Assembly (NCBI GenBank): GCA_965215265.1
Contig: OZ244048.1
Coordinates: forward strand, 400,917-464,916
Direction: 5' to 3'
Origin: Candidatus Poribacteria bacterium
GTDB taxonomy: Bacteria; Poribacteria; WGA-4E; WGA-3G
DNA length: 64,000 nucleotides
Positions 10,711-36,300 of this stretch are shown piece after piece. Within the stretch, counting starts at the first letter, position 1. Each line of letters starts with the position of its first letter. Both the position numbers and the translations under genes were made by a program. The notes beneath the pieces were generated by a model. It saw nothing but the letters and a program-made list of their open reading frames with translations, was not told the origin of the DNA and did no database searches.

Positions 10711-10769
10711 TTCAATGGACGGAATATAATAACAGCAACGAAGAAATATGCAGACCTTAACGAAGAAAT

Positions 10770-11753: not shown

Positions 11754-11757
11754 CATC

Positions 11758-12141
11758 ATGGCGAGAAGGGCGATGACCTCGGAACAAGCGTCATCTAAGA
11801 AAAAAAGCGGGCACGCTAACGAAAATCACTTTGCCGAACTGATTGGTGGAGTCGTTTTGGCTTCAACAAGAAAGACTGACGTAATAGACCAACAACACCG
11901 AACCCACTCTGTGAAAAGTGGGCAATGGTGGCAAATTTTCCTTTATGCAAGATCTAGACTGGTAACCAACACGATTTTTCAGGATATAGGAGAGCTTGCA
12001 GACCTCATGATTCAATGCATCGATGCTTTTCCTGAAAATTTCAGCGATTATAAGATGGATAAACAGTCAGCGAAATACCGTTTACAGGAGCCGATGCATC
12101 TTCTGAAAGAGGAGATTGAGAAACCTGAGATAGACGATTAA
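11758..12141 (+). CDS. hypothetical 127-aa protein immediately downstream of the Dam-like MTase (possible remnant of an R-M partner)
   Basis: 4-nt gap after the MTase stop, same strand. No motif I recognise. Confidence 0.35.
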   Translation: MARRAMTSEQASSKKKSGHANENHFAELIGGVVLASTRKTDVIDQQHRTHSVKSGQWWQIFLYARSRLVTNTIFQDIGELADLMIQCIDAFPENFSDYKMDKQSAKYRLQEPMHLLKEEIEKPEIDD

Positions 12142-12189
12142 ATACGTTAGGTGAAAAAAAATCCATAGAGATTTAGTACAGAGGTAACT

Positions 12190-12978: not shown

Positions 12979-13763
12979 TGGAAATTATTATTCAATCGAC
13001 ATATCAGAAGTTAGTATGCGTGGCGGCAGATATAGTGCGCAGCGCACTTTTGAAAAAGTCCGACCTCGTTTTGGGGCTTGCCACGGGTAGTACGCCCCTC
13101 GGATTTTACAAAGAACTTGTACGGATGCATCAGGAGGACGGTCTCGATTTTTCAGCCGTAACCACTTTTAATTTGGACGAGTATGTCGGAATTCCTACGA
13201 CGCATCCTTACAGTTATCATACCTTCATGGAAACGCACTTTTTTCAGCATGTCAATATCGCGACTGCGAACCGGCATATCCCGCAAAGCACTGCAGATGC
13301 CCACGAGACTTTCTGTGAAGAATATGAGGCAGCGATTGCACGTGCCGGTGGCATCGACATTCAGCTCCTCGGCATCGGGATAGACGGCCATATCGGCTTC
13401 AATGAACCCAGTTCCTCCCTCGGCTCCCGTACCCGAATTAAGACGTTGACGCGAAGTACCTTGGAGGCGAACACCCCGCATTTCGGGGGCGATACGGGTT
13501 CAGTACCCACCATGGCCATTACAATGGGCGTCGGGACTATCATGGAAGCAAAGAAATGTCTACTATTAGCCAGCGGAGAGTCAAAGGCGGCCGCGGTCGC
13601 TGCAGCAGTGGAGGGCCCTATTACCGCAGAAGTACCTGCTTCGGTGTTGCAGATGCATCCGCGAGCCGTGGTCCTAACTGACAATGCAGCAGCATCCCAA
13701 CTCAAGCGCATAGATTATTACAAACAGGTTTACACCAATAAGCAGAAACTTCTGCGGATGTAA
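12978..13763 (+). CDS. nagB: glucosamine-6-phosphate deaminase
   Basis: LGLATGSTPLGFY, NLDEYVGIP and LLGIGIDGHIGFNEP signature motifs. Confidence 0.85.
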   Translation: MEIIIQSTYQKLVCVAADIVRSALLKKSDLVLGLATGSTPLGFYKELVRMHQEDGLDFSAVTTFNLDEYVGIPTTHPYSYHTFMETHFFQHVNIATANRHIPQSTADAHETFCEEYEAAIARAGGIDIQLLGIGIDGHIGFNEPSSSLGSRTRIKTLTRSTLEANTPHFGGDTGSVPTMAITMGVGTIMEAKKCLLLASGESKAAAVAAAVEGPITAEVPASVLQMHPRAVVLTDNAAASQLKRIDYYKQVYTNKQKLLRM

Positions 13764-14945: not shown

Positions 14946-15650
14946 CTACACAAAAGGCTCAAGTAAAACTCGAAATTTATTGACACAAGAGGCCACGTTT
15001 TCTATTGGAAGCTCCTTAAAGTGTTGTGGCTTATGTATTTCTCTGTTCGATTTTCTATTACTATCAAGCAGAGTTATGATTTCCAGACTTACCGTCGGAG
15101 TGTGAGACAGTAACGTATGCGTTGATTCACTACCTAATTGCTCCGGTTTACTAACTTCTCCGTAATCTCCACCTAAACCATTCTCGAGCTGAAATACACA
15201 AAATAGCAGGTCTGGATAAAGTAACTTCGCGATTAACTCAAAATCTTTCAAGGTTCTTTTGAGCATAGCATTTTCTATATATGACTTGCACTCTATGCCT
15301 AGAATTAACTTGTCATCTATCTTTACTGCTCTATCCAACTCTATTTTATAAACATATCTTTCCTTATTCTGTTCAATATGATGCCGGATAGATTCAAGAG
15401 TTAGATTTTTAACATAATTTTCTTCGATAGTGATAGTTCTTGTCCGTTTTCGTATATCGAAGCGGTCAGTCTCACCCCCTACTTCATGCCATGCTAAATG
15501 GACTATAGCATCCACAATATTCTCTACTAGTGCACCTTTTGCTCCCCGAATCTGTCCTGGAGTCATCTCGTACATTGAATATATGCTGCTGTTGTACAAC
15601 TCAACTATTGATTGATAGTCTGGATAAGTAAGCACATCATAGGTAGCCAT
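14946..15650 (-). CDS. putative Type II restriction endonuclease (PD-(D/E)xK fold)
   Basis: Co-directional, immediately downstream of a DNA MTase. Candidate catalytic D...(D)-x(n)-E-x-K in DDKLILGIECKSY. 234 aa. Confidence 0.5.
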   Translation of the reverse strand: MATYDVLTYPDYQSIVELYNSSIYSMYEMTPGQIRGAKGALVENIVDAIVHLAWHEVGGETDRFDIRKRTRTITIEENYVKNLTLESIRHHIEQNKERYVYKIELDRAVKIDDKLILGIECKSYIENAMLKRTLKDFELIAKLLYPDLLFCVFQLENGLGGDYGEVSKPEQLGSESTHTLLSHTPTVSLEIITLLDSNRKSNREIHKPQHFKELPIENVASCVNKFRVLLEPFV

Positions 15651-15733
15651 TTAGCTGTTCCATATCTTACAAGTGATTTGTAACTGCTCCGATATCAAGA
15701 ATTAAAGCCCTGAAATGCTTAAGTCAAGTTCAC

Positions 15734-16621
15734 TTACACTAAAAGGCGTAACCTATCCTCCGCCGTTTGGCAGTATTCGGGCGAAATGTCTATACCTAAG
15801 AAATGACGTTGGCTTTTAAACGCTGAAACACAAGTTGTTCCAGTCCCCGCGAAAGGATCGAGAATAGTATCTCCTCGGAAACTGAACAGCTTCAACACCC
15901 GATTCGCGAGTTCCTCTGGAAACATCGCAGGATGTCTAAATTTTCGCATATCGCGTTCCGGTGCGATCGTCCATTTCGCCGAGACCCACCGTTTGAAAGA
16001 CTCAGCGTCAATATCCGCATCTTTTGGATGCCCCGACTTTTTCAAAGACCCTTTGCAAAATATCTCTAAAAACTCCCACGTATATTTAAGGTAGGGGCTC
16101 GAGGGGCTTTTCCAACTCCCCCAAGCAGTATACTTACAATTGTAGTGATTTTTCTCCCATAGAATTTCACCCTTCCAGATCAGCTTCTTCCGTATAAAGT
16201 ACTGTGAAATAAGATGATGTGTCGGAATGTAATCCGAAAATAGCGGCTGAACGTTAACAACGATGCGGCCCCCATATTTCAGTATTCTGATGCATTCATC
16301 AAAGATACCGAACAACACCCTGAAGTAAGCGTCCCATGCAAAGGCATCCTCGGTTCCCTCGTAATCCAGACCAAAGTTGTAGGGCGGCGATGTGAAAATG
16401 AGGTCTATGCAATTGTCAGGCAGCTGCGTGAGAACAGTCTGTGAGTCGCCGCAGATAATTGTATCGGTAAACTCAGCAGGTAGGACATTACTCTCCTGAC
16501 TAAAATCATGCGTATTGGCATAATAGTACTTCCCACGTGCTGCTTCTTTCTGTTTCCGATTCCTAACTTTTCGTTCCATCGTGTTATCTCTCTTTTTCAA
16601 ATTGTTCTTTTGCTCAAACAT
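15734..16621 (-). CDS. DNA methyltransferase, N4-cytosine/N6-adenine beta class (N6_N4_Mtase family)
   Basis: Motif IV IFTSPPY lies near the N-terminus. Motif I DPFAGTGTT lies near the C-terminus, followed by FLGIDIS; this is the beta-class order. Confidence 0.85.
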   Translation of the reverse strand: MFEQKNNLKKRDNTMERKVRNRKQKEAARGKYYYANTHDFSQESNVLPAEFTDTIICGDSQTVLTQLPDNCIDLIFTSPPYNFGLDYEGTEDAFAWDAYFRVLFGIFDECIRILKYGGRIVVNVQPLFSDYIPTHHLISQYFIRKKLIWKGEILWEKNHYNCKYTAWGSWKSPSSPYLKYTWEFLEIFCKGSLKKSGHPKDADIDAESFKRWVSAKWTIAPERDMRKFRHPAMFPEELANRVLKLFSFRGDTILDPFAGTGTTCVSAFKSQRHFLGIDISPEYCQTAEDRLRLLV

Positions 16622-17050: not shown

Positions 17051-17506
17051 TCACGCCTCCTCTCGTAGTAATTCATCAATTGCGTCAGAAAGATTCCAGA
17101 TTGGATCATCCTTTCCATCTTGCAGCATCCTGGCTATATGGGGGACCCCCGCCGCAGCGAGCCCATTCGCGATAGTCATCATGCGCCGTGGATTTTCCAC
17201 AACTTGCACGTCATCATCAACTGCTATAGCAATTAACATTACTGTCTGGAACCGCCAACTGTCTCGGTCAAAGATTGAACCTTGGATGAACGTGAAAGTT
17301 TCCTGTTTGGATAGGTTGACTAGTTCGAGTTCCTTTCGCACTGCAAACGATAATCCTGCAAACCATAAATCAACCATTCGCGGGAAAGGGCTTCGATCTA
17401 CACTTGCCTGTCTACTTGTTTGGCAGTAACGATCATAAACATCGCGCTGAGTCTTAGGGGCGATTAAATCCATACTAGCAAAGGGATTATGATATTGCTG
17501 TGCCAC
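17051..17506 (-). CDS. hypothetical 151-aa protein, last gene of the putative PT-like defense operon (DndE-like by position only)
   Basis: 23 nt after the SMC-like ATPase gene on the same strand. No recognisable motif. Confidence 0.4.
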   Translation of the reverse strand: MAQQYHNPFASMDLIAPKTQRDVYDRYCQTSRQASVDRSPFPRMVDLWFAGLSFAVRKELELVNLSKQETFTFIQGSIFDRDSWRFQTVMLIAIAVDDDVQVVENPRRMMTIANGLAAAGVPHIARMLQDGKDDPIWNLSDAIDELLREEA

Positions 17507-17528
17507 TGTCTACCTCCTAAGATATTGG

Positions 17529-19637
17529 TTACACTTCTGTTTCTACATCCATTCGCCGCTGGCACAAGCGGCATTTCTTACGGTGATTGCATTCACACCG
17601 TAGTGTCTTACGTTGCTCTACCCGTGGATCATTAACTAAAATTCGCGGATAGTGTGCCGAGTTTGTCAACGTTATCACACGCCCTGCTTCTTCATCCAGA
17701 ATTTCTTCACAGTCTGCAATCTCGGAGCGCGTGAGAAATAGAATAAGCTGCGAGCTTTCCCGGATGGCAGTCCTAAGTACGGACCGCTTCACATAGCCGC
17801 TCATCATTCCGAGCGGTGTATCAAGCACATTCGGGGCTTCGACTTCACTAACCTTAGTTAGAGCAAGGATAAAGGCAAAGGTCAGTGCACGACGAGATGC
17901 ACCGTTAAGATCTTGGTCAGGGTTTAGCATTTGATTATTTAAACCGTAGACCAGAATATCATAATCCTTGCTGATTTCTGCCCTTTGAATGATCGCCCCT
18001 TGTTTTGGATCAGCACCGATCATTTCAAGAAAAATCTCGTTCATTTTACAGCTGACTTTCATCAATTCTTCATCTGTAATCCGGTCGTAGGACTTCTTCA
18101 GAACACTTTGTACATCGCGCGCCACATCCAGACTCGCAAGTATGTGTTTACCTTTCCTCTGTTTACTAAGAAGGTTATCGCGCCGCAATACCAAGCTTTT
18201 ACGCTCTTTTTTTAGTCCTTCAAGTTGTGTTTCAGCTCCCCCTAAACGACGGGAAAGGTGGGTCTTCTGGTCAGTGTAGTCCTGCTCGGTAGAGCGAAGA
18301 CCCTGAATATTGATGTCAGGTATAAGGTCCAACTGTGCTTCAAGATCCTTAAGTTTTTCACCTTGTTCATCGCGTTTCCTTTTAAGTTTATCTCGGCACT
18401 CCACGATTTTCTCGTACTCAGCAATCCAATCCTTATTGTTAGCGGTTTCATCCAGTTGCAAGTCACGCGAACCGTAATAGAGGTCAGTGAGCTTACTTTG
18501 AAGAACATCTGCTTGTTGGCTTTCATCAATCAGGCACTGGATGTGGTCTCTTCGCTTCTTGCCATCAACTGTCTGTGAATCTAACGACTCACCACAAATG
18601 CAAGTAATTCCCTGGAGACGCTCTTCCAAGACAGGAATGGTTGCACTAGGAATCTTGCCCTGAGTGTGCAACTTACTTAGCTTTTCAAGGCTTTTTTTCA
18701 ACGTCGGAGCAAGCAGGTCGCGTGAGAAGAACATACCTCTAAAAAGGTGAGAATGTTTTTGACCAGCAGCAGCGAGATTCTTGTCAAGTTGCTTTAGCTG
18801 CACCTTGGTTTCTGCAATATCGATTTTAAGTTTTTCCCGGTCGCCCTTAACTAATGCGATTTCAATTTGTTCCCGGGTTCCCTCAATTTGTTTATGAATC
18901 GCGGCAATCTGCGATTTATAATCGACTATGTTTTTCTCAAGCTTCCTATACGCGGTTTCTATCTCTTCCAATTCTGCAGCAACGCTTGTGAGTTCCTTAT
19001 GGATGTCAAGTGATTTTGCTGCTTTGTTGAAGTCAGAAATTGTCGTTTTTATATGTGACCTGGCCTTGTCAATGTAATTCAGTCCCAAAAGCGAACGGAT
19101 TGCTTTTTCAACGCGATCTCGCTTGATTTTTTCTGATGCAGTTGCTTCAATGAAACTGAGTGCTCGATCACCGTCAGTAAAGAACACCTCCCTTAGTTCA
19201 GGCGGAAGTTCTTCTTTAATCCGCACGTTAGGTTTATCCACGTCCTTGCTCCCCGTATCTGTTAATTCAAATAAACGGACCTCTGGATTATCCATTACAC
19301 CATCTAATTTTTCATAACCAGCCCGGATAATACGGTATCGTATAGTGTCATCCGGACCGCTCCGACTAAGCCTCTTTGTCTCAAATTCAACCTGTACAGA
19401 TATTGGAATTCGCTGACCATCTGCTGCGTCCCAATCGATCGGATGTAGACGGTAGTCTTTGCCCTTTTCTGGCAATGCATCATTACCATAAAGAGCCCAT
19501 TGAAGTCCATTGAGGATAGTGGTTTTTCCACTTTCGTTCTCTGCCCGAATAACCGTTAGCCTTTTATCCGTTGAAAAGTCTAACTTTAAATCACGTAGCA
19601 GACGGAAATTTTCAAATTGGGCACGGATAAGTTTCAT
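17529..19637 (-). CDS. SMC-like / DndD-like AAA ATPase with long coiled coil and Rad50-like CxC hook motif
   Basis: N-terminal FENFRLLRD...IRAENESGKTTILNGL (RecF/SMC_N-type Walker A). Long heptad-rich middle with TCICGE at the apex. C-terminal ABC signature/Walker B region and a Cys-rich tail (CECNHRKKCRLCQ). Confidence 0.7.
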   Translation of the reverse strand: MKLIRAQFENFRLLRDLKLDFSTDKRLTVIRAENESGKTTILNGLQWALYGNDALPEKGKDYRLHPIDWDAADGQRIPISVQVEFETKRLSRSGPDDTIRYRIIRAGYEKLDGVMDNPEVRLFELTDTGSKDVDKPNVRIKEELPPELREVFFTDGDRALSFIEATASEKIKRDRVEKAIRSLLGLNYIDKARSHIKTTISDFNKAAKSLDIHKELTSVAAELEEIETAYRKLEKNIVDYKSQIAAIHKQIEGTREQIEIALVKGDREKLKIDIAETKVQLKQLDKNLAAAGQKHSHLFRGMFFSRDLLAPTLKKSLEKLSKLHTQGKIPSATIPVLEERLQGITCICGESLDSQTVDGKKRRDHIQCLIDESQQADVLQSKLTDLYYGSRDLQLDETANNKDWIAEYEKIVECRDKLKRKRDEQGEKLKDLEAQLDLIPDINIQGLRSTEQDYTDQKTHLSRRLGGAETQLEGLKKERKSLVLRRDNLLSKQRKGKHILASLDVARDVQSVLKKSYDRITDEELMKVSCKMNEIFLEMIGADPKQGAIIQRAEISKDYDILVYGLNNQMLNPDQDLNGASRRALTFAFILALTKVSEVEAPNVLDTPLGMMSGYVKRSVLRTAIRESSQLILFLTRSEIADCEEILDEEAGRVITLTNSAHYPRILVNDPRVEQRKTLRCECNHRKKCRLCQRRMDVETEV

Positions 19638-19653
19638 TGGATAGCCCTCCTCC

Positions 19654-19878
19654 CTATTTTAGTTGATTCCGGCTCTCTGCAAGAGAGTCGCCAGTCTTTT
19701 GACAAATTTCGCGTATTTTTTGGTGAATAGGTGTCATCTTCAAAAGATGTTCCTTTTCGTGTTCGAGGATTTTATCTATGGCACCAGCAAGTTCCTCCTT
19801 GTACCCATCGTACCTTTCCTCAATAGATTGGCATTCATGAAAGATAATGTCAAAGATTTTTTGTCTATTGAACAGCAT
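19654..19878 (-). CDS. hypothetical 74-aa protein between the helicase and the SMC-like ATPase
   Basis: 12-nt and 17-nt gaps to its neighbours on the same strand. No motif. Confidence 0.35.
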   Translation of the reverse strand: MLFNRQKIFDIIFHECQSIEERYDGYKEELAGAIDKILEHEKEHLLKMTPIHQKIREICQKTGDSLAESRNQLK

Positions 19879-19889
19879 GATTCTCTCCT

Positions 19890-22025
19890 TTATAGATAAA
19901 TCGCTTTAACAAGTCGATCAATAATATCCAAAGGCCCATCAGTTCTACCTGCATTCAGAGCGAGTTTAGAAAATTTCATAACTCGCGAGAGTTCTGATTC
20001 AATAAGTTTGCGTGCCTCATCGTCGATATCATCCATGTTCGATGGCAATGCAATAAAATCGTGAATTTCGCTATGTGTCTTGTCAGTTTCACGACATGTC
20101 CGAAGGAGCCTCCCTCGACGCTGTACCCATTGCCGCTCTACTGTAGTACTGGCCAGGATGAACGCCTTTTTAATCTGCGGAATGTTCACACCTTCATCAA
20201 GCACGCGCTTTGCAGTCAGCACATGCAATGTCCCCTCCTGAAAGGATTGGATAATTTTCGCTGTTTTTTCACTGTTCGGTGTTTCCTTGTATGTGAGTTG
20301 GTGAAAAAGCACACCGCGTGCCTTCAATAAAGCATTGACAGCCTCAAGTTGCTGCGGTGCCTTGTCTGATGCGTAAATTAATGTGTACTGGAGTTGTCGA
20401 AACCCCTCACGTGTCAAGACCGCCTCCAACGCCTCGATCTTATTTTCCGCGTTCTCTAAGAGAGCACGCCTATCCCGAAGCAACTTCATCAGATACTCAT
20501 CAGTTTCATTTTCTTCCTTACGCCAAGAATTCGCCTTGATTTTTTCCGTAAGTGCATACCATTGGTCCATTTCGTCCTCTGTGAGTTCCACAGGATGAAC
20601 GTAATACTCGTATTCAACGAGGCATCGCCCGATTGCTTCCTCGAGCGTGAATTGGAAAACAACCGGACCGAAAAATGAGAACAGGACCTCTGTCCCGTGT
20701 TCATCATATTGACGGATCGGAGTTGCCGAAAGACCCAGCCTATAATCAAAAAAAGTCGGCAGGTCAGTGATGAATCTCTCACTTCCCAGATTGTGTACTT
20801 CATCCGCAATGAGCAAAGTCTTACAATCCATTTTTTTGATTTCCGTTTTAAACTCGCTATTGCATAGTGTAACATGAGAAACGACAACAATTTCAATGCC
20901 GCTTCTTCCAATTCGAAGCCGTCGTCTTATCTTATTAAGTTCACGTGCCCGTCCTCTTGCTCCTGTAGACGCTGTCAGATTAACAGCCGTGAGTCCAAAG
21001 GGCAAAATCTCATCACACCACTGTTGAATGAGCGGAATGTAGGGTGCTGCAACAACGATAAGCAGCGGCTTCTGCACATTGTAAAGCCTATGTGCACAAA
21101 TCATAGCAGTAATCGTTTTGCCTGAACCGGTCGCCATTTCTAAGATACCTTGATAATCCGCTTCGCACCACGCATCTACAGCCCTGCCTTGATGTTCAAA
21201 GGGGCCATCCTGAAATCGGAGTTCTGATGGTATTACAAATGAAGTACGAGACGAATCGTAATCGGCAGGAGATTCCTTTATCGAGCCAGTCGCCTGGTCG
21301 TAGAGTGTCCGAAAATCTGTCTCGGTTGGCGGGATGTCTGAACGATAAGTGTGAAGTAGATCGTCGCGAATAGCTTGGGGCATCTCAACCACGATACAAC
21401 TCTCAACCTCATTTTCCCAAAGTTGTTTGAACTGGTCACAAAACCTTTCTGTAGTGTAGTGCTGGGTAGGATCTTCCCAGGATTTAGAAATGGAAATTTG
21501 CTCAATATTCTTCTGAATACCGGCATAAGTCATATTGCTAGATCCGTGTGCTGCAATCACGTCATCACCTTTCCGAAAGAGCCAGACCTTTGGATGGAAG
21601 AGTGCATCTTTCATAACGGCTATCTTGATTTGGACGCGTCTCCTATGCAGCAGCCACGACAGACACTTCAGTGTATGTTGCGCAATAAGGTCTTCAGTGA
21701 CAAACATATCTTCTAAAATTGCATTAGCGCTATTTTCCGAAGAGGTTAGCCCTTCTTCTATTGCCTCCCTATCTTCAGAGCGGAGCAGAGGACTGATAAT
21801 TAAGCGAAAACTCTCCTCTGAGGAGTTGATAAAGGTTGCCAAGCCCGGGGCTAGCGACACGAAGATGTCGCTAGAAAAGAATCCCATCATGCCATCAACT
21901 TGAGTCGCTGACTGAAAGCAAGGGATCAGGACCTCTTCAGACACCGGATCGTCAGGTAGTATGTAGAGAGGTCTAATATTAGGCACAGCCTGAAGCGTCA
22001 TCTCATTAAGCTCCAACATCTTCAT
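19890..22025 (-). CDS. PLD-family (HKD) nuclease domain fused to an SF2 DEAH-box helicase
   Basis: HPKVWLFRKGD...HGSSNMTYAG resembles an HxK...GSxN PLD motif. The helicase has Walker A MATGSGKT and DEAH-like LIADEVHNLG, then helicase-C motifs (VLTAKRVLDEGVNIP, QRRGRLLR). Confidence 0.7.
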   Translation of the reverse strand: MKMLELNEMTLQAVPNIRPLYILPDDPVSEEVLIPCFQSATQVDGMMGFFSSDIFVSLAPGLATFINSSEESFRLIISPLLRSEDREAIEEGLTSSENSANAILEDMFVTEDLIAQHTLKCLSWLLHRRRVQIKIAVMKDALFHPKVWLFRKGDDVIAAHGSSNMTYAGIQKNIEQISISKSWEDPTQHYTTERFCDQFKQLWENEVESCIVVEMPQAIRDDLLHTYRSDIPPTETDFRTLYDQATGSIKESPADYDSSRTSFVIPSELRFQDGPFEHQGRAVDAWCEADYQGILEMATGSGKTITAMICAHRLYNVQKPLLIVVAAPYIPLIQQWCDEILPFGLTAVNLTASTGARGRARELNKIRRRLRIGRSGIEIVVVSHVTLCNSEFKTEIKKMDCKTLLIADEVHNLGSERFITDLPTFFDYRLGLSATPIRQYDEHGTEVLFSFFGPVVFQFTLEEAIGRCLVEYEYYVHPVELTEDEMDQWYALTEKIKANSWRKEENETDEYLMKLLRDRRALLENAENKIEALEAVLTREGFRQLQYTLIYASDKAPQQLEAVNALLKARGVLFHQLTYKETPNSEKTAKIIQSFQEGTLHVLTAKRVLDEGVNIPQIKKAFILASTTVERQWVQRRGRLLRTCRETDKTHSEIHDFIALPSNMDDIDDEARKLIESELSRVMKFSKLALNAGRTDGPLDIIDRLVKAIYL

Positions 22026-22883: not shown

Positions 22884-25800
22884 CTATTCTTGAAGTTGTT
22901 GCATCCATTTCTGTGCAATTCGTGCGAAAATAGCGACGCGAAGCTCAAGGGTATCAGTGCCCATCCCAAACTGCTTAAAGACCTCATCAATAGCCTTTTC
23001 TATTTCGGAAGCCTGCTTATCAGCCGCTGATGGTAAAGTGACGACCCGCTCCTGTTCGGCTTGGTGAGGCCGTGTAATGCCGACCCGAACAGGTTCACTA
23101 GATGACGGCTGACGGCACGCTTGTTCTTCATAAGAAACGGCTTCAAAATGATGGAATTGTCGCGCGAGCGTCGAAAGATTCATCTCAAATAGAGCGTTAT
23201 CTTCGTCATTCCAAGATCTCGGCGGTTTGTTAGCTACATAGAGCGCCACTGCCTCAAGCCAGTCAGTGCGATTCCGAAGCTTGCCATCGCAGACTCGACG
23301 GAGAAATCCGTTGAGCCTCCCCCCAACGGTAATTTCCAACAGCGGCTCTGCTCTGCGAACCAGTACACGCTGAAGCTCTTTCTCGTCTTCCAAAGCGAAC
23401 GTCGTCTTAAGTCGTTGTTCAATCGAATTCAACAGACTCTCGTAGACCTGCCGCAATTCAGATAAAACCTCCTGTAGTCTGCTGCAGAAGTCCGAAACTA
23501 CCTGCGAGTCCACGATTTCCGGGCTGAAAACCGGAAATCCGAGGGCCTTCGGCAGCTCCCCAAAAAGCAGCTCATCCGGTTCACGCGCATTCGTAACCGA
23601 TGTACGCAGCCTCTTAGCTTCATCGCTCAACTCCTCCGTTTTCAAAGTGTAGTCTGGAAGTTGTGCAATAAATTGCATAAGCGGTGCAACCACCGTCAAT
23701 AAATCAGGTTCTCCAGGTTCCGACGATTGACGGAGTACCTTCAGAAATTGCTCGAACAACTCGCCCCGGATAGCTGTCATCCGGAAGCGCTTGATCTCAA
23801 ATCGTTGCGGCATTTTAAGCAGCCGCTCAAAAAGCGGCACTGACCATTCCGGGGCAAAGCCCCCATTTTCGTAGAGCGCGATTTCCGACTTGTAATGCAG
23901 CAGAGCAGCACACAACAGAATCGGCAGCAGACCATTTCGAACACCGTAAGGCTCGGCCTCTAAGCATTTATAGAGAGCTACTACCGGTTGCCGCTCGCCT
24001 TCACACTCCTCAAGAAACGCATCTATTTCTCCCCACACGGGCATCAGACTTTCTTCCGTTGGCGGACAAAACCCCCACATGTCCGAAACTTTGCGATGCA
24101 TGCCCGTACTCTCTAACACAGAACGGTAGATGCTCATTTCAGCCGGGTAACCGTTGATGCCGAGGTTTTCCATGTCACTCCTCTCAAGCATCGCCTCAAT
24201 CAATTTTCTTCGGGCAGTCGCCGCTGTCGCAGAAATACTACGTCTATTGATGAGCTCATTACGAATAATAGGTGTCCCAGGGTAAACCTGCTTACAGATT
24301 TCTGACAAATATCTGTTCCGCGCACGTTGGGAGTTGATACTTTCTACAGGTTTCCCTTTGTGGTACCAGAGACAAGTTTTATCTCTATCCTTGTCGCCCT
24401 TAAAAATTTCGGTTAGTTGACCGGACACTGCGCGTTCTGCTTCCATCTGCCGCAGGAGGAGCTCCCGTCTTGCAACTGCATCGCCCTCCAATTCCGGGGT
24501 GTTTTCCGCAACCCAATGTAGACAGGCAAGTTCAAAGACAACCTCTTGCAGCGACTCGATCGAACGTGGAATCGCAACCAACACCGCCGCGTGCGCGACA
24601 CTGTCCATGCCGCACGCCTTCTCAATGAACTGATCGACCTGTTCCTGCGTCGCAGGTAGCGTGTAAAGGATCAGACCGTCCGCATCCTCGAACGGTTCAC
24701 TCAGATCTGCCTCGAAGTTCTCAAGATTGGTGTACCGAACAGTGAAATGACGGAGGGTCCCTGTCTCAAACAGATGCTGCCGTGCAACGAGCGGACGCGG
24801 TTGTGTATAGCGCGAGAGGTCTGCAGCAAGCACTAACTCCGAACCAATATGGGCCGCGGCTTCGCGGAGCCGTACCTCAATATCAATATCACTCCCTTCC
24901 CAAAGGGCGTAGGTGTCATTGTAACGACGGTATATCACAATGGATCGCCTTTTCAGATCTGCAAGCGCCTCCTCAAATCCTCCTCCGTTAGCGTCTAACG
25001 CATAACGCAGCATTTGTGCTGAGGCTTTCAGCTCAGGAATCCCTGTGTTAACAACATTGAGTAACCCAATAGTTTTAATCAGACGAAGCGCTAACGGTGA
25101 AGGATCCGATAAGCAATCTAAGGCAGATTCAATTTCTACCCATTTTTTCCCGTTATGAGAAGCATAAAGCCGATGCCCTTGTGTAGTATGAAGGTAGTCA
25201 TACAGTTCAGCGAGCGAAAACAGAGGCAGAACCTCTCCATCGTAAGATTCTGATGCCAAAAAGTCTTGTAGCCCATGCGGTTCGCTTGAACTCAGGAAAG
25301 CAAAGAGCGAACGTTCATTCTGTGAGAACCGCCGGAAAAGCGGCCCGATCATGAGGGCCACCGTCGGATGCAGCGGCAGACAACTCTTCAATAACAAAAT
25401 AAATTCGTCTTCATTCAATTGGCGCGGTTTTAGTCCTAAAGCAATTGCATTGTTAAGATTAGGCGGCACGACAACCTCTGGATGCCGCACCAATGCCGCA
25501 CTAATTAACCGAAGCACCTGCTCAGTCGGCTCCGTAAACACCACATCCTCGAACCGGCCCTGAACCTTCGCCCACTCTTCTCGTTGTGACCTACTCGCAC
25601 GTTCCACGTAAAATTCAAAAGCTTGATGCAGGATCGTCATCAGGAAGAACGGTGCCGGCGTACTGCGATCCGCCAATTCGGCGAGGCTCTGCAGAACAAA
25701 TATATCTGCTTGTGCCGGACGATCCGCAGCATATTCGAGAAACTTTCCCAGCTCGTCAACCACCACCAGCAGCCCGGAACCTCCAGCATCACAAATTTGA

Positions 25801-26363
25801 CGTGTCGCCGATTCAAATAGCGCAGTTATCTCAGAGGCAGACGGCGAACCCCCATTTGCTACCATTTCTTTCAGGTTGTCGAGAACCGCAGCAGCACCCC
25901 AATCGCCGTTTGAACGACTGAGCCCATGCTGCAGACCCCGCAGCAGACTACGCGTAAGCGGCGCACGTTCCCCCGAAATCAACACAGGACAGAAACCAGA
26001 TGACGACACCGCCCCCTTACCGTTTGCACCGACAGATACGAATCGCGCATGCAGCTCAGCATCACCCGCCTTCAGGATTTCTAAAGCCTGGCGCGCCGCG
26101 GAAGTGTCACGGGCACCGAGTAACTGTGCCGCAAAGAGTGCAAATGCCGACTTCCCCGAACCATACGGGCCCGTCAGAGACCACGCCTTTGAACCACGTT
26201 CGTTTTCAAACGTAGAAACCACACGCCCCAACATATCCCGCGCACTCACAGTCAAAACGTACCCATCCAGAACGCTCTCCGTGTAGAAATCGCGCTCCAG
26301 ATGCACCGAACGCCTAAAACGCCCCCTAATCTGAAAAATATCTGACAACAAGGTGTTACTCAT
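22884..26363 (-). CDS. large P-loop NTPase (1159 aa; KAP/BrxC/SspC-like ATPase)
   Basis: Walker A LTGPYGSGKSAF and Walker B LLVVVDELGKF in the first 250 aa, with a long alpha-helical C-terminal region. A 4-nt overlap couples it to the upstream DUF4007-like gene. Confidence 0.6.
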   Translation of the reverse strand: MSNTLLSDIFQIRGRFRRSVHLERDFYTESVLDGYVLTVSARDMLGRVVSTFENERGSKAWSLTGPYGSGKSAFALFAAQLLGARDTSAARQALEILKAGDAELHARFVSVGANGKGAVSSSGFCPVLISGERAPLTRSLLRGLQHGLSRSNGDWGAAAVLDNLKEMVANGGSPSASEITALFESATRQICDAGGSGLLVVVDELGKFLEYAADRPAQADIFVLQSLAELADRSTPAPFFLMTILHQAFEFYVERASRSQREEWAKVQGRFEDVVFTEPTEQVLRLISAALVRHPEVVVPPNLNNAIALGLKPRQLNEDEFILLLKSCLPLHPTVALMIGPLFRRFSQNERSLFAFLSSSEPHGLQDFLASESYDGEVLPLFSLAELYDYLHTTQGHRLYASHNGKKWVEIESALDCLSDPSPLALRLIKTIGLLNVVNTGIPELKASAQMLRYALDANGGGFEEALADLKRRSIVIYRRYNDTYALWEGSDIDIEVRLREAAAHIGSELVLAADLSRYTQPRPLVARQHLFETGTLRHFTVRYTNLENFEADLSEPFEDADGLILYTLPATQEQVDQFIEKACGMDSVAHAAVLVAIPRSIESLQEVVFELACLHWVAENTPELEGDAVARRELLLRQMEAERAVSGQLTEIFKGDKDRDKTCLWYHKGKPVESINSQRARNRYLSEICKQVYPGTPIIRNELINRRSISATAATARRKLIEAMLERSDMENLGINGYPAEMSIYRSVLESTGMHRKVSDMWGFCPPTEESLMPVWGEIDAFLEECEGERQPVVALYKCLEAEPYGVRNGLLPILLCAALLHYKSEIALYENGGFAPEWSVPLFERLLKMPQRFEIKRFRMTAIRGELFEQFLKVLRQSSEPGEPDLLTVVAPLMQFIAQLPDYTLKTEELSDEAKRLRTSVTNAREPDELLFGELPKALGFPVFSPEIVDSQVVSDFCSRLQEVLSELRQVYESLLNSIEQRLKTTFALEDEKELQRVLVRRAEPLLEITVGGRLNGFLRRVCDGKLRNRTDWLEAVALYVANKPPRSWNDEDNALFEMNLSTLARQFHHFEAVSYEEQACRQPSSSEPVRVGITRPHQAEQERVVTLPSAADKQASEIEKAIDEVFKQFGMGTDTLELRVAIFARIAQKWMQQLQE

Positions 26364-27352
26364 TCTTCCCCTTCTTTGTCATAATACTGCTTTAAAAGTC
26401 GCATCGACTCTGAATCACACCGACTATCGCGATGGAAAAGTCGCATCGACTCGGAACCACACCGACTATCGCGATGGAGCTGCTTTAAACCTGCAGTATC
26501 ATCATATCGCAGTACACCCGCGGTAAGTTCTTCAAGCCTATCGAGATACAGAGTCATCGTGTCTTCATCTATTCTGAAAATTCGTCCCGGACTTAAGGGT
26601 TCATACATCAGCTCTTGGAAGCGCAATGTGTTCGCTGCAGAAAAACGTTTATCCCAAAACGCAATCAGCGTCGCCGTAAAGAGCTCGACCGGTAAAGTCT
26701 CTTTTCTCCCACGCTGGAACTCATAGCCCGCACCCTCCGGCAACTCACCGATTAAGTTGAGCTCAACAAGCGGACAAGCAAAAGTCTCCTCAACTAAGGC
26801 AGCGTTAAAACTATCAGGTGAAGCGCAATACGTCCGAATAAAACAAGTCACATCGCGCCGAAATGTATTGTCAGAAACAGGCCGCTTCGATACCCGCTGC
26901 TGCGATGCCCACTTCGACAATTCCGTTATAAAGGTGTCAAATGTGAATCGATTCTCCTTAAAAATGTTAAATGCCCAATACCACGTAGTAGCCTGGTTGA
27001 TATGAGTTGCAATCTGCCAATGAATGAACCACAGAGTAGCAGGGTCATCGAGGTACGGATCAAATCCGTCTTTCCCAAAAAAAGCCTCGCCGAGCTCTGT
27101 TGGCACAAATACCCCGGGTTGACGTGATACTGTCTCAATAAGTCCAGATACTCTGCACCAGTACCGAATAGAATCCACCATGTTTTTTCCGACACCTAAA
27201 GTGACGGAAGCCTCCTGCGATGAAAAAACATCCGGATCCTCGATTACCGCATCGACACCTTTCTTCAACCACATGTATCGCATCGGAAACGTCTGATGGC
27301 CTGAAAAGGACAGATTTCTTACTTGTGAAGGGTTGAAGCGTAGGTTACTCAA
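26360..27352 (-). CDS. DUF4007-like protein (SspB-like), first gene of the PT-like operon
   Basis: The N-terminal FSGHQTFPMRYMWLKKG motif is one I associate with DUF4007 proteins that sit beside PAPS-reductase and ATPase genes in Ssp-type clusters. This assignment is from memory. Confidence 0.5.
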   Translation of the reverse strand: MSNLRFNPSQVRNLSFSGHQTFPMRYMWLKKGVDAVIEDPDVFSSQEASVTLGVGKNMVDSIRYWCRVSGLIETVSRQPGVFVPTELGEAFFGKDGFDPYLDDPATLWFIHWQIATHINQATTWYWAFNIFKENRFTFDTFITELSKWASQQRVSKRPVSDNTFRRDVTCFIRTYCASPDSFNAALVEETFACPLVELNLIGELPEGAGYEFQRGRKETLPVELFTATLIAFWDKRFSAANTLRFQELMYEPLSPGRIFRIDEDTMTLYLDRLEELTAGVLRYDDTAGLKQLHRDSRCGSESMRLFHRDSRCDSESMRLLKQYYDKEGEE

Positions 27353-27550
27353 ATTTTGCCCCCAAAAATGTACAAATCCTCAGCACATGCAGCCCTGGGG
27401 GCAAAAAATTGAGAATAAGCGATAGAGAGACGGTACAACAAAAACAGCCCGCAGCCGGTGCCATCAACCAATATGACACACGAGCGCACGGACAAAAAAT
27501 CGGCAAATGCCAATAACGTTTTACTTAATAAAATACTTAACGAATGTGAA

Positions 27551-27560
27551 TTGGGGGGGG
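27551..27560. repeat. G10 homopolymer tract in the leader/promoter region of the PT-like operon
   Basis: attgggggggggg, about 200 nt upstream of the operon's first start codon (minus-strand orientation). Confidence 0.9.
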
Positions 27561-27869
27561 GGTCGTGGCCTGTTAAACCTTGTGTACGAGAGGGATCTCG
27601 TGGAATTAACGACCGACAGCAATTGCAACCGGACGCTGGTACTGTTTTAAATCTAGGACTAATATGTTTATTCTTCATCTACTTTACCGGTTAGATGTGA
27701 GGGAGTATAACTTAAACCAGAATGGAAAATAATTGAGATAATACACATTTTTCTGTTCTTCGGGTCATATTTACCTATATTATACCTTAAACTGCAAATC
27801 TGTTCAAACTATTTCCCGGATTTGTCACGTTTTGTTTTATTATATGAATTATCAAATTCTTGTGCGATT

Positions 27870-28736
27870 CTAGCCTTTAAACACCTCTCTTAGGTGCCAA
27901 TCTATAAATTCTTCGTTCGGGTAATCCATCTGGCTATGAGGAAAACTAATTTCTTTTCCGTGGAATCTCATTAGCCATTCTTCAAAACCGGCTGACCCGT
28001 CTGCATCCTCAGATACCACTATTGTCAACTCCTCGGACAATGCAAAGGCCCCCCGGTCGAACAACTTATGATGTAGCGAGCAGAGAGCCATGCCATTCTC
28101 TGCTATATCCGGTCCATCCGCCATGCGCCATTTGATATGAGCCGCCTCTAAAGCGACAGGACGAGCTCGTAACGTTACATTAAATCCACAAATCGCACAC
28201 TCGTGGTTATAAGCATCGAGGATACGGTGCCGGAATTTAGGATCACGGGGCTGCCAGAACGATCCGAAAGATAGTTCAATGCCGACAGCTTGTAAAATAT
28301 CTTCATGGTATGAGATTGGAAAATGAGAAGCTAGCAACCGCCCAGTTATTTCAAAAACTAAACCCAAATCGCTTTTAAGTTTTTCGGCAATCGCTGCCGG
28401 AAAGCTACCGACACCGTACTCCCTCAAATCGGTGACGTACGCATCTCCACTAGCAGTCTGCTGAATTCTATGTGCATCGGATACTTGCCAGATGTCGTCG
28501 TTTTGCAACCGCCAAAATGGCTGCTCAGGGTGATACCTTTGGCACCACGGTCCAAACTCTTTTAGTAAGTCCTTGAGTTCCTTTTCAGCTTCTGCAAATG
28601 GGATGTACTCAGTTTCGCTGTTCAGCAATTTGCCTATCGCATAAAGTAGCAGCAACGGCTTATGAGGCGCTCTTTCGCCGCCGCTTTTCCATACATTCAA
28701 GTCCTGAAATTTCTGAATAATTGATTCTCTGTCCAT
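27870..28736 (-). CDS. HNH endonuclease-domain protein (288 aa) with an uncharacterised N-terminal domain; possible modification-dependent (Type IV-like) nuclease
   Basis: C-terminal HNH core HECAICGF...EAAHIKW...ALCSLHHKLFDRG. Confidence 0.7.
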   Translation of the reverse strand: MDRESIIQKFQDLNVWKSGGERAPHKPLLLLYAIGKLLNSETEYIPFAEAEKELKDLLKEFGPWCQRYHPEQPFWRLQNDDIWQVSDAHRIQQTASGDAYVTDLREYGVGSFPAAIAEKLKSDLGLVFEITGRLLASHFPISYHEDILQAVGIELSFGSFWQPRDPKFRHRILDAYNHECAICGFNVTLRARPVALEAAHIKWRMADGPDIAENGMALCSLHHKLFDRGAFALSEELTIVVSEDADGSAGFEEWLMRFHGKEISFPHSQMDYPNEEFIDWHLREVFKG

Positions 28737-32392: not shown

Positions 32393-35300
32393 ATGAACAA
32401 AGAACACATCAGAGAGGCTCTCGCTGCAATATGCACTGGCCCCTTTTTACAAACCGCGAAAAACCTGCTCGCCACGCTCGGCTACCGCAGCGATTTGACA
32501 GAAGCATTCTCTGGAACAGCCGGCGACTTTATAGAGACTTTCCCCGCATTCAACCCGAACACCCAAACGGAACAAGCCCTCCGAAACCACGCAGCCTCGA
32601 TACACTTCATCTTCCAACTCACAGACGCAGAAATAGATGGCGAAACGCAACAGCGGTTAGAACTCTTTGAAGGAAACGATGCGGAAAGTTTCTTTTTCTT
32701 CGCGGTTGAACTAAAAGAGAAAACCTACTCCCGCGGTGCGTACGCAGAATTGACGCGAGAAATCAATAAGCGTCTGATTGTTCCGACGGTGGTGTTATTT
32801 CGTGTGTCAACCCGGCTAACCCTCGGTTTTGTGGGACGCCGTCCACACGAGCACCACCCAGAACGTGATGTTCTCCAACAAGTGACACTCATCAAGGATA
32901 TTCGTCTTGAGGCACCGCACCGTGCGCATTTAGATATCCTCTCTGAACTTTCACGAACAGAATGCCTGAACTGGATGGACGCAAATAACAGACAGAAAAA
33001 CTTAGCCGGACTGCTATCCGCCTGGCTAGCGAAACTCAACACCGAAGCGCTCAATAAGCAGTTCTACCGAAGGTTGTTCAGCTGGTTTGAGTGGGCAGTG
33101 AGGGAAGCGAAGTTCCCGACAGCCGAGCTGAATCCGTTGGGTTCCGAAGCACACATCATCCGGCTCATCACGCGGCTGCTCTTTATATGGTTCTTGAAAG
33201 AAAAAGGGCTTGTCCCCGAGTGGCTTTTTCAAGATTCCGGGCAGAAAGAGCAGGCGGGCACGCAAAACAACGAGCTGTCTGAAGAATCTGAACAGAATAG
33301 GCAGGTAAGCCTGCAAAACAACCAACAGTCTGAATACCCCCCCCCTTACAGACGTTAAGTCTTCTGCCGAACTCCACGACAGAAAGCAGCCTGCACGCAC
33401 ACCTCAAAAACTTTGAGCCCGACACATCCGACTACTACCAAGCCATCCTCCAAAACCTATTCTTTGCTACTCTCAACACACCTATAAATCAACGCACATT
33501 TAGCACACACGATAACCGGAGCCACCGCGACTCAAGCAAATATCGCTATGCTGACCTGCTCCAACAACCCGACACCTTCCTTCAACACCTAAAGCACGTC
33601 CCATTTGTCAACGGCGGACTGTTTGACTGCCTCGATACCTTTGAGGCAACCGGCGACGGCGGTGTCCGAATAGACTGTTTCTCTGATAACAAAACAGTTC
33701 GGCAAAAATTACACGTCCCCGCAAAACTCTTCTTTGACAAAACACACGGCCTCTTTCCTCTCTTCGCTCACTATAAGTTTACCGTCGAGGAAAACACACC
33801 CATTGAACAAGAAGTCGCGCTCGATCCAGAACTGCTCGGACAGATATTCGAAAACCTGCTCGGCACCTATAACCCCGAAACACAATCCACCGCACGCAAA
33901 GCCACAGGCTCTTACTACACACCCCGCCAGATTGTCGACTATATGGTAGACGAGGCACTCATCGCATACCTCCTCCAAAACGTCAAACCCTACGACGGAA
34001 ACACACAATCCCTTGAAGAACGCCTCCGCGAAGACCTCCTCGCTTACGAATCCCAAGGCAACATTGATGAAGACGCACATCACCTCATTCATCCAGAGGA
34101 AATCCAACCCCTCATTCAGGCAATCGACGCACTCAAAATCATAGATCCAGCCGTCGGCTCCGGGGCTTTCGCTATGGGCATCCTCAATAAACTCGTGCTC
34201 ATCCTCCGAAAACTCGACCCGCAGAATCAAAACTGGAAGCAGCGACAACTTCAACAAGCTGAGAACATACCAGATACCCATAGCCGAGAAAGCGCGAAGC
34301 AGGCAATTGAGGCAGTTTTCTCCAAGGCGAATCACTACAACGACTACGGACGTAAACTCTACCTCATCCAAAACGGCCTCTACGGCATAGATATACAACC
34401 CATCGCCGTCACCATAGCAAAACTCCGCTTTTTCATCTCCCTCATCATAGAGCAGATACCCAACCAGAACCCTGACGACAACTACGGCATCAGACCCCTC
34501 CCCAACTTGGAGACGAAGTTCGTTGCCGCAAACACCCTCATCGGCTTGAAGGGGGCAAAAGAAACGGATTTTCAGCGCTTGCTGGAAACAGACACCATCC
34601 AACAACTCCGCAACGACATTGAAGTCATCCGCGCCAAACACTTCTCCGGCAGCACCCGTCCGCAAAAACTTGAGGCGATGCGAAAAGAGGAAAAGTGCCG
34701 TGAAAAATTGGCACGAGCGCTAAGAACACAGTCGGAACAGTGGACGGTGCAGGAGCAAAGCCGGATATCCCAACAGATTGCGCAGCTGCCAAAAAAGGAG
34801 GCGCGCAACCAACTCCAAGAAAAACTCGAGAAAGCGTATGCAATTCGTCAGCAAAAGCTAACAGCCAGCGTAGAAGAGGCACAGAAAATCGCAGACTGGA
34901 ATCCATACAACCAGAACGCCGTCGCCGATTTCTTTGAACCCGCATGGATGTTCGGCATCCACCACGGCTTTCACATCGTCATCGGCAATCCACCCTACAT
35001 CCGACACCACAAAATTCACCATCTCAAACCTACCTTGAAAACACAATTTGGTGATTTCTTTACGGGCATGGCAGACATCAGCGTCTACTTCTACAAACGC
35101 GGAGCCGAACTACTACGAGAAGGTGGTTTACTCTCCTACATCTGCACAAACAAGTTTATGCGCAGCGGCTACGGAAAAAAACTACGCCAATTCCTAACCG
35201 CTGAGATGGCACTAAAAACAATTTTGGATTTCGGCAGCCTTTCCGTCTTTGACGCAGCAGTAAATGCATCCATTCTCCTCGTTCAAAAGTCGCCACCTAC

Positions 35301-36300
35301 TCCAAACCACACCCTCCATGCGACAACCCTAAGGCATGTTTCAAAGGAATTTAACGTCCGGAAAGCATTTCAAACGCAGGCATTCCCGATGCAGCTCGCC
35401 TATTTGTCTTCAGAAGAATGGACGTTAGCACGCACAGAAACACTCGCCCTACTACAGAAATTGCAACACACGGGAACATCATTCAGCGAATCAATACAAG
35501 GTCAACTTTATATTGGTATCTTCACCGGATACAATGAAGCATTTATCATAGATGAATCTCTCTGTCAGCAGCTAATAGCAGAGGATGCCAAAAGCGCACA
35601 ACTCATAAAACCTTTACTGCGAGGGCGGAATCTCAAAAAATGGAAAGCGGTATCAGCAAACGAGCACTTGATAGCAATAGCCAGCAGTGCCAATAAACAG
35701 TGGCCCTGGTCAAACGCAGCAAGCGAATCTGAAGCCGAACAGATTTTTGAAAAAACCTATCCAGCAATCCATCGCCATCTAATACGCTATAAAGAGCGGC
35801 TTTTACCCCGTGATAACCAGGGAAAATTCTATTGGGAGTTGCGTTCGTGCGCCTATTACGACGCGTTCGAAAAGCCGAAGATCATCTATCCGGATATTAG
35901 CTCATCTATGCGTGCGTGTTATGATACCGCAAACGCTTTTTCCTTACAGACTACCTACATCTTACCTACTGAGGATCTCTCTTTGCTTGCAATTTTGAAC
36001 AGCCAACTTTTTGATTGGTATGCCAAATATAAGTTTCAGAGCCTTAACGATCCGTGGATAGGTGGTGGCTTGCGTTTCATTGCTCAATACATGCGACATG
36101 TCCCGATAGCCAATAGAACAGAAGCACAGAAAGCCGCACTCTCACGCCTCGTCGCGCAGATATTGGCAGAACCCAACGGCGATGCCGTGAACGCACTTGA
36201 GAAAGAGATAGATACCTTAGTCTATCAGTTATATGAGTTAACGCCGCAAGAAATTCAACTCATAGAACAGACGTATCGCGACGCAGGGATGACAGTATGA
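32393..36300 (+). pseudogene. MmeI-family Type IIG restriction-modification enzyme (PD-ExK nuclease + gamma-class N6-adenine MTase + TRD), reading frame broken at a C9 tract
   Basis: The N-terminal frame (32393..33358) carries D...FFFFAVELKEK (ExK) and the LITRLLFIWFLKEKGLV helix. The downstream frame opens at 33334 and carries LGQIFENLLGTY...GSYYTPRQIVDYMV, IIDPAVGSGAF (motif I) and VIGNPPYI (motif IV). The frames meet at the 9-C run at 33338-33346. Confidence 0.7.
33338..33346 (+). repeat. C9 homopolymer inside the Type IIG R-M coding sequence (candidate slipped-strand phase-variation tract)
   Basis: gaatacccccccccttac; the frame changes exactly here. Confidence 0.85.

Follow-up and report, generated by a model that had tools for sequence, protein, structure and literature searches.

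Why would a bacterium whose genome encodes machinery for placing phosphorothioate (PT) links in DNA keep, beside that machinery, a nuclease of a family that cuts PT DNA? The question is raised by a 64,000-nucleotide (nt) stretch of a Candidatus Poribacteria genome (contig OZ244048.1, positions 400,917 to 464,916; hereafter the window), in which a gene for a 288-amino-acid (aa) protein with a sulfur-binding domain (SBD) and an HNH nuclease domain lies next to a predicted Ssp PT-writing operon, sspB-sspC-sspD. Proteins of this SBD-HNH type are already known, and a standard annotation pipeline would name the one in the window correctly. The noteworthy part is the context: members of a family that cuts PT DNA are repeatedly found beside a PT writer, often apparently co-transcribed with it, though avoidance had been expected. 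We regard this conserved, sometimes operonic pairing of SBD-HNH with the Ssp writer as moderately surprising. We think it probable, with real reservations, that the nuclease is an autonomous, partner-independent enzyme of type IV style, kept in the Ssp island as a complementary layer of defence.

Identity of the nuclease

The gene is an intact open reading frame (ORF) where the earlier note, made from the DNA letters alone, had placed it, and it is organized as follows.

27870..28736, minus strand: SBD-HNH nuclease gene, 288 aa, ATG start
28272..28736, minus strand: sulfur-binding domain, aa 1 to ~155
28032..28238, minus strand: HNH (beta-beta-alpha-Me) core, aa ~167-235, with C180, C183, H200, N214, C219, H222 and H223
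27873..28031, minus strand: conserved, family-specific C-terminal extension, aa 236-288

The translation contains ERAPHKPLLLLYAIGKL and FWRLQNDDIWQV in its N-terminal domain, together with the HNH motifs HECAICGF, AAHIKW and CSLHHKLFDRG, all as first reported. On every sequence- and structure-based test applied, the protein grouped with the SBD-HNH family, and it fell outside both the three-domain ScoMcrA type and SspE/DndI on the tests for those. We are therefore highly confident that it is a further member of the known SBD-HNH family of PT-dependent nucleases.

First, the NCBIfam model NF045808 (PT-DNA_restrict) matches the protein with a score of 331.1 bits (cutoff, 180; E = 4.6e-99), aligning aa 6-287 with profile positions 3-284 of 284, and 4177 protein clusters are homologous to it at E <= 1e-10. 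These homologs carry precomputed Pfam assignments to PF26340 (DNA-SBD_ScoMcrA) and PF13391.

Second, the N-terminal domain, previously left unassigned with the suggestion that it be compared with the SBD of ScoMcrA, is an SBD of the ScoMcrA/SprMcrA type by both sequence and fold; it is indeed a separate domain, of about 155 aa instead of the 170 aa first estimated. In phmmer searches, aa 22-97 align with the ScoMcrA SBD (5ZMM/5ZMO, E about 1e-7; 5ZMM, E = 1.8e-7) and residues 5-101 with the SprMcrA SBD (7CC9/7CCD/7CCJ; 7CC9, E = 6.9e-5). An AlphaFold model built from 119 sequences has a predicted local distance difference test score (pLDDT) of ~90 over aa 1-150, and a Foldseek search of the PDB with this model gives an SBD (of ScoMcrA, SprMcrA or Hga) for each of the 15 top matches, ahead of the HNH enzymes VcaM4I and TagI. 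The best match, 5ZMO, has E = 4.7e-7, a target TM-score of 0.80 and a root mean square deviation of 2.3 Å over 156 columns.

The sulfur pocket is kept. H25, K26 and P73 of the nuclease correspond to H116, R117 and P165 of ScoMcrA, Q72 to the lid residue Y164, and R76 to A168. Among 84 homologs, with identity down to ~45%, H25 is present in 83, K26 in 81 and P73 in all 84, and an arginine at position 76 is typical of the family (82/84). This pattern parallels the description of the ScoMcrA pocket by Liu et al., in which H116 and P165 were most conserved, R117 was mostly lysine in homologs, and Y164 and A168 were variable (PMC6224610). The base-contact loop S96-G97-D98 aligns without gaps, at a constant offset of 6, with H102-G103-D104 of SprMcrA, the loop that touches the bases of GpsG/GpsA sites in an enzyme that does not bind CpsCA (PMC7470945). 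Compared with the solved SBDs, the domain in the window is only about 20% identical, with Gln for Tyr at the lid and Ser for His in the loop.

Third, the nuclease half is intact. Pfam HNH_2 matches aa 180-233 (E = 7.6e-12), and the C-terminal part aligns with the HNH domain of TagI (6GHS; phmmer, E = 6.8e-6). In the same 84 homologs C180, C183, H200, N214, C219 and H222 never vary, and 82 retain H223; this near-invariance of active-site residues across divergent homologs points to selection on catalysis. The HNH motifs noticed at the outset are real, and their placement at the C terminus needs correction, as the core is followed by a conserved extension of ~55 aa, through which the NF045808 match runs to the last profile position (284/284) and in which E253, W254, L255, P273, H281, V285 and F286 are conserved alignment columns.

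These data bear on whether the protein might have lost its nuclease function, or not use it, and do no more than bind PT DNA, for instance to regulate the ssp operon or to act as a roadblock. The idea that PT DNA could be attenuated by an enzyme that binds it tightly but leaves it uncut has been discussed (PMC7461809), the gene stands immediately upstream of a conserved, regulatory-looking sspB leader, and AlphaFold confidence over the HNH half is low (58-77). The invariant catalytic and zinc residues (H223 in 82/84) and the end-to-end match to a nuclease family profile speak against such a role, which we consider highly improbable.

The reader-plus-HNH architecture proposed earlier for PT-dependent nucleases also stands, with the likeness to ScoMcrA holding only in part. 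phmmer alignments with ScoMcrA cover only the SBD and HNH segments, and Pfam finds no SRA/SAD domain between them, where a linker of ~12 residues joins the SBD (to ~aa 155) to the HNH domain (from ~aa 167). Lacking an SRA domain, the protein belongs with the two-domain SprMcrA/EcoWI enzymes and apart from those of the three-domain ScoMcrA type. With the former (NF045808; PF26340 + PF13391) it shares the two-domain architecture, a length of ~290 aa, the reader fold, the pocket of His, Lys/Arg and Pro, a homologous loop and an intact Cys/His zinc HNH domain. Searches of Pfam, NCBIfam and PADLOC gave no match to DUF262, DUF1524 or the SspE model.

Linkage to the Ssp writer

Downstream of the nuclease, and likewise on the minus strand, the window holds a 517-bp gap, sspB, sspC, sspD, a gene for a phospholipase D (PLD)-type nuclease-helicase, a 74-aa ORF, an SMC-like ATPase gene, a 151-aa ORF and a type II restriction-modification (R-M) pair. 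The writer genes are as follows.

26360..27352, minus strand: sspB (DUF4007), TTG start; Pfam DUF4007, 1.7e-86
22884..26363, minus strand: sspC (BrxC-like ATPase), 4-nt overlap with sspB; PADLOC SspC, 1098.8 bits
22055..22873, minus strand: sspD (PAPS-reductase-like); Pfam PAPS_reduct

Judged by its PADLOC matches (SspB, 1.8e-97; SspC, 1099 bits; SspD, 2.7e-116), the operon is an Ssp PT writer, and the PT-writing operon suspected beside the nuclease is genuine. The start of sspD is probably a conserved Met codon 10 nt past the sspC stop. The ORFs scanned around the cluster include no cysteine desulfurase; published Ssp systems often depend on IscS encoded elsewhere in the genome.

Scanning one genome per species yielded 80 relative loci, mostly from Poribacteria, Latescibacterota, Caldilineaceae, Desulfobacterales, Planctomycetes and Firmicutes. 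In 34 of these loci, ssp genes were detected by profile search no more than 10 kb from the nuclease; as many contigs are short, this is a minimum. If sspBCD occurs in about 3% of genomes (Yuan et al.) and would fall within 10 kb by chance in ~0.5% of cases in an Ssp-positive 5-Mb genome, then a linkage of 42% would amount to an enrichment of several orders of magnitude. Whereas the characterised SBD-HNH enzymes either belong to genomes that lack a PT writer or are found alone in defence islands, the clade of the window is often beside, or apparently co-transcribed with, sspBCD. We found no description of two-domain SBD-HNH proteins linked to SspBCD in the literature searched, the coverage of which was incomplete.

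Two gene orders recur. In order A, the HNH gene is followed by a leader of 300-670 bp, sspB-sspC-sspD and, where the contig reaches that far, the PLD-helicase and SMC genes (the window, L001, L005, L029, L037, L039, L042 and L063). In order B, sspB-sspC-sspD-HNH, the spacer from the sspD stop to the nuclease ATG is 11-19 nt in nine measured junctions, often with a GGAG-like ribosome-binding site, which argues that the genes are co-transcribed. The linkage extends over four phyla, with ssp proteins 25-49% identical to those of the window: it recurs in Poribacteria, in a metagenome-assembled genome (MAG) of Gemmatimonadetes (L034; sspC-sspD-HNH), in Planctomycetes MAGs (L074 and L082; sspB-sspC-HNH) and in Desulfobacterales (L050, and the Desulfobacteraceae locus L043, in which HNH and ssp genes are convergent).

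Many of the Poribacteria loci share one syntenic site, with genes for a 3-keto-disaccharide hydrolase, an aldo-keto reductase, MutY and an FGE-sulfatase on one side of the island and HAD and PhyH genes on the other. This site is found in several states: order A (L001, L005, L029, L037, L042 and L063), sspBCD-HNH (L025), sspD-HNH lacking sspB and sspC (L012 and L022) and HNH alone (L003 and L007). We considered L025 as a clean four-gene island and rejected this, as two more unannotated ORFs lie past its HNH gene. As a separate observation, intact sspD-HNH pairs with neither sspB nor sspC within 10 kb on either side occur in L012 (9049-10888), L016, L022, L033 and L044, with spacers of 11-19 nt where measured, and these pairs sit in different branches of the HNH tree. 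They may be remnants of deletions, belong with sspB and sspC genes located elsewhere in the genome, or work as two-gene units.

Such linkage suggests an alternative in which the SBD-HNH protein is the cognate effector of SspBCD, or one of several, in the manner of SspE or DndI: by reading the host's own Ssp marks, the SBD would license, position or restrain the HNH domain, which would damage incoming unmarked DNA, and SspBCD with SBD-HNH would form a distinct Ssp subtype. We treat this as tentative and rather doubtful. The HNH gene lies at most about 75 nt from sspD in about 17 loci, in the slot that elsewhere holds SspF, SspA-SspF, PLD-helicase or DndB-like genes; several of these loci have no other recognisable Ssp effector within 10 kb; and both gene orders occur at the one syntenic chromosomal site. 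Neither SspE nor SspFGH accompanies 84% of sspBCD clusters, and further partners are expected. In a Bacteroides BREX type 4 PT cluster, brxP-mcrA-brxC-brxZ-brxL, Yuan et al. described an McrA-like gene after the SspD homolog, between brxP and brxC, that coexisted with PT synthesis on co-expression (PMC12914056), and Rakesh et al. suggested that genes with a winged helix-turn-helix (wHTH) SBD, SAD and HNH domains in Dnd modification loci are real restriction components, a like role (PMC10853773).

ScoMcrA (SBD-SRA-HNH) and the wHTH+SAD+HNH proteins are built from the same SBD and HNH modules, and the latter are likewise linked to a PT module, but the window protein has no SRA/SAD domain, and its writer is SspBCD, which makes single-strand PT, as opposed to the DndABCDE of the Dnd loci. 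SspE and DndI (DUF262 NTPase + DUF1524 HNH) are, like the window protein, His-Me finger nucleases beside a PT writer; the window protein could in principle use host PT as a licence and, like SspE, would be harmless when PT is absent. Unlike them it has no DUF262, DUF1524 or NTPase, and its reader is a winged-helix SBD, not a hydrophobic patch on a ParB-like domain. Moreover, the linkage comes largely from one phylum and one syntenic site, and vertical inheritance at that shared site inflates the count. PT DNA is what every characterised SBD-HNH enzyme cuts, and an SBD that read the host's own marks would make such an enzyme self-destructive.

Nuclease genes without a nearby writer

The role of cognate effector is also at odds with how the nuclease is distributed. 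It is full length, with its catalytic residues, in essentially every locus, including the 46 of 80 without ssp genes within 10 kb; among these are all 16 members of a Firmicutes subclade and the syntenic Poribacteria sites L003 and L007. In several loci sspB or sspC is split or missing, with HNH intact, and some of these splits may be assembly errors. Intact nucleases where ssp genes are absent or broken within 10 kb weigh against a cognate effector, with the qualification that ssp genes may lie elsewhere in those genomes. They also led us to reject a classical R-M logic, in which PT would shield self DNA from an HNH domain that cuts unmodified DNA.

Annotated homologs on proteobacterial plasmids (38-44% identity), which bear the PGAP name 'phosphorothioated DNA-binding restriction endonuclease', stand alone in defence islands beside Dsr1, type I R-M or an integrase, with no PT writer. 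L041 carries two tandem SBD-HNH paralogs, 61% identical, with different base-contact loops, as expected if specificities diversify. Among the homologs, neither the pocket-lid residue (position 72) nor the loop sequence correlates with Ssp linkage; the lid result and the divergent tandem paralogs count against the role of cognate effector.

Two side observations concern these loci. L041 is a disrupted Ssp locus (7874-13051) with the order sspD, HNH, second HNH, Hypoth_Ymh protein, TIR-domain protein and sspC. In L009 (10899-12959), L007, L030 and L046, all Poribacteria-type, a Piwi-domain (prokaryotic Argonaute-like) protein of ~686 aa directly follows the SBD-HNH gene, and in L009 an unannotated 305-aa ORF comes next.

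Sulfur-binding domains in the Ssp partner slot

Could an SBD nevertheless read Ssp marks? With SspD as its starting point, a scan of metagenomes gave 25 loci whose Ssp operons are more distant. In these the slot after sspB-sspC-sspD is variable and may contain SspA-SspF, a PLD-helicase, a DndB-like gene, GHKL ATPases or a second SspB/SspC-like pair. In L093, the slot protein (5797-8160; 787 aa) has an SBD as its first 150 residues, 30% identical to the SBD of the window (E = 6e-19), and its remainder matches SspF. H-K-P, Y-P-F and SSGD motifs are present in this SBD, and its match to 5ZMO has E = 2.3e-6.

The protein belongs to a family of SBD-SspF fusions (~780 aa, with an SspF-like P-loop body) that numbers 655 clusters at E <= 1e-20; among the top 120, nearly all have PF26340 and lack an HNH domain. 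Further members are L111:10001-12361, L113:10001-12352 and L115:10001-12328. In each of three contexts checked (3/3), the fusion takes the place of SspF in a full (sspA)-sspBCD-sspF-sspG-sspH cassette. Its pocket is conserved, with Lys in 105/106, Pro in 104/106, a Tyr/Phe lid in 117/119, Pro in 104/119 and the loop Gly in 119/119. Like the SBD-HNH proteins of order B, the fusions lie directly after sspD, with SBDs 27-33% identical to that of the window, a conserved pocket and an (S/V)-G-(D/H) loop; they differ in having a P-loop SspF body, followed by SspG and SspH, in lacking HNH, and in coming mainly from Gammaproteobacteria. We found no mention of SspF together with an SBD in the literature searched.

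In SspFGH systems, the Ssp marks serve as a self tag and unmarked DNA is damaged (PMC8092258), and the SBD-SspF fusion may be how some SspFGH modules read that mark. A broader proposal would join the two SBD proteins: SspBCD with SBD-HNH would form a distinct, undescribed Ssp subtype, the SBD reading the host's single-strand PT marks and controlling the HNH domain against unmarked invaders, and the SBD would be a general reader of the Ssp self mark. We hold this to be unlikely. If an SBD does also read self marks, this would help to explain self/non-self discrimination in SspFGH and in those sspBCD clusters (84%) for which no partner is known.

In a further group of loci (L084, L086, L087, L089 and L091), sspD is followed by a very divergent second SspB-like gene, a ~165-aa ORF, a protein of 1280-1427 aa and one of ~720-790 aa. 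The 1280-1427-aa protein matches SspC models in L084 only, and the ~720-790-aa protein has no family match where tested (L084). This second SspB-like set looks like a paralogous BrxA/BrxC-like module in the slot of the restriction partner.

Possible mode of action

A self/non-self role, as first suggested for this protein, fits the data, and the candidate logics are attack on foreign PT DNA and sensing of the host's own PT marks. Several lines of evidence favour the first, in the form of an autonomous type IV-style nuclease. First, every characterised family member is PT-dependent. Second, the gene persists and diversifies where no ssp genes are nearby. Third, the base-contact loop resembles that of SprMcrA, a reader of GpsG/GpsA that does not bind CpsCA. 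Fourth, in the window a promoter-like site and a terminator-like hairpin separate the nuclease from sspB, and the nuclease lies outside the slot after sspD, which is taken by the PLD-helicase/SMC module, a position that also argues against its being the cognate effector there.

In an autonomous enzyme, the SBD would dock on an Rp phosphorothioate link, its sulfur enclosed by H25, P73 and the aliphatic portion of K26, which together make a small hydrophobic pocket; K26 would form a salt bridge with the phosphorothioate, and the S96-G97-D98 loop would read adjacent bases through the major groove. The HNH domain, stabilised by zinc (general base H200, N214 and metal ligand H223), would then nick or cleave the DNA at a distance of a few bases, probably as a dimer like its characterised relatives. 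SspBCD with the PLD-helicase/SMC module would act on DNA without the host mark, and the SBD-HNH protein on incoming DNA with PT in contexts foreign to the host's writer, for example double-stranded GpsN marks of the Dnd type; SBD-HNH would leave host DNA uncut, as it would not accept single-strand Ssp marks as a substrate. PT-dependent cleavage, this specificity and the sparing of self DNA are what we infer for the nuclease. Should the specificities not overlap, the two systems would divide the labour between single-strand Ssp marks and foreign marks.

A further point in favour is a similar combination reportedly described for BREX and type IV restriction in one defence island, said to give complementary protection (going by the title of Picton et al. 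2021). There, too, a modification-dependent nuclease would lie near a modification-based defence, with base modification and BREX in that case and backbone PT and Ssp in ours.

Some observations pull away from an autonomous nuclease. The linkage in 34 of 80 loci is tighter than simple neighbourhood in an island predicts, and the placement of HNH close to sspD in the partner slot of some loci is more readily expected of a partner. The pocket-intact SBD-SspF fusions in sspBCD-sspFGH cassettes suggest that an SBD can read self marks. Lutz et al. anticipated that PT-dependent enzymes would stay clear of PT writers, and they found <3.6% near dnd clusters (PMC7461809), and at least one SBD, that of Hga, binds CpsCA (PMC10602919). 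Whether the nuclease attacks foreign PT DNA or serves the host's writer, its clade is a source of SBDs whose base-contact loops are new and could be used in tools for PT mapping and PT targeting.

Leader between the nuclease and sspB

The gap between the nuclease and sspB in the window contains conserved elements.

27353-27869, minus strand: HNH stop to sspB TTG gap, 517 bp, conserved non-coding leader
27779..27807, minus strand: sigma-70-like promoter match, TTGAAC-17-TATAAT (consensus scan, 10/12 positions)
27534..27562, minus strand: C10 homopolymer, ~13 nt, then TAAGTA
27435..27492, minus strand: GC-stem hairpin then T-run, terminator- or attenuator-like (terminator-like match)

The promoter-like site and the terminator-like hairpin together indicate that the nuclease in the window is probably transcribed apart from sspBCD. 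A leader is present in all eight loci with the HNH-sspB order (8/8, counting the window), its counterparts being L001:10886-11395, L005:10916-11198, L029:10892-11236, L037:7310-7607, L039:10883-11304, L042:3327-3621 and L063:10877-11411. Across these order-A loci, a -10-like block and an ATG-led block are conserved. A 109-aa ORF in the gap was considered as a gene and rejected: it has no Pfam match, and DNA-level conservation, the poly-C tract and the hairpin point to a non-coding leader.

The poly-C element (C8-C17, then TAAGYA) is found in 8/8 order-A loci and nowhere else in the 1.8 Mb of fetched loci, in which only 11 C/G runs of at least 9 occur; loci of the sspBCD-HNH order lack it. RNAalifold, given the eight sequences, keeps a six-pair hairpin stem with little covariation and weakly predicts pairing of the poly-C tract with the G-rich ribosome-binding site upstream of sspB, with almost no covariation. 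The leader might act as an attenuator or a translational switch, or might include a phase-variable tract. An Rfam search of the nuclease gene and the HNH-sspB gap returned no match.

Neighbouring defence genes

The module directly after sspD comprises the following genes.

19890..22025, minus strand: PLD-nuclease + SF2 helicase (PbeA-like / dnd_restrict_1-like); PADLOC PbeA, 3.5e-199; Pfam PLDc_2 + ResIII + Helicase_C
19654..19878, minus strand: 74-aa ORF between the helicase and SMC-like genes; L001 has an 80-aa gene at the same place
17529..19637, minus strand: SMC/DndD-like ABC ATPase (PbeC-like); PADLOC PbeC, 1.8e-48
17051..17506, minus strand: 151-aa ORF, conserved after the SMC-like gene, also in L032

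Against the Dnd models themselves, the helicase scores 382 bits with TIGR04095, under the 600-bit cutoff, and the ATPase 122 bits with TIGR03185 (DndD), also under cutoff. The 74-aa ORF, the 151-aa ORF and an upstream 331-aa ORF have no match to PbeB, PbeD or any other defence model in PADLOC, and the 151-aa ORF has none in Pfam. As a whole, the module (17051-22025, minus strand) resembles the PbeABCD-type modules known beside Dnd, here coupled to sspBCD. It also follows sspD in L001, L032, L039, L042 and L063, with more distant versions in L105 and L107.

Base composition (GC 42-52%) and tRNA scans (no tRNA) gave no notable sign of recent horizontal insertion. Around the Ssp cluster lie further R-M genes, which mark the region as rich in defence: a D12-class adenine methyltransferase (10770-11753), a type II restriction enzyme with an N4/N6 methyltransferase (14946-16621) and an Eco57I/TaqI-like methyltransferase (33943-36300).

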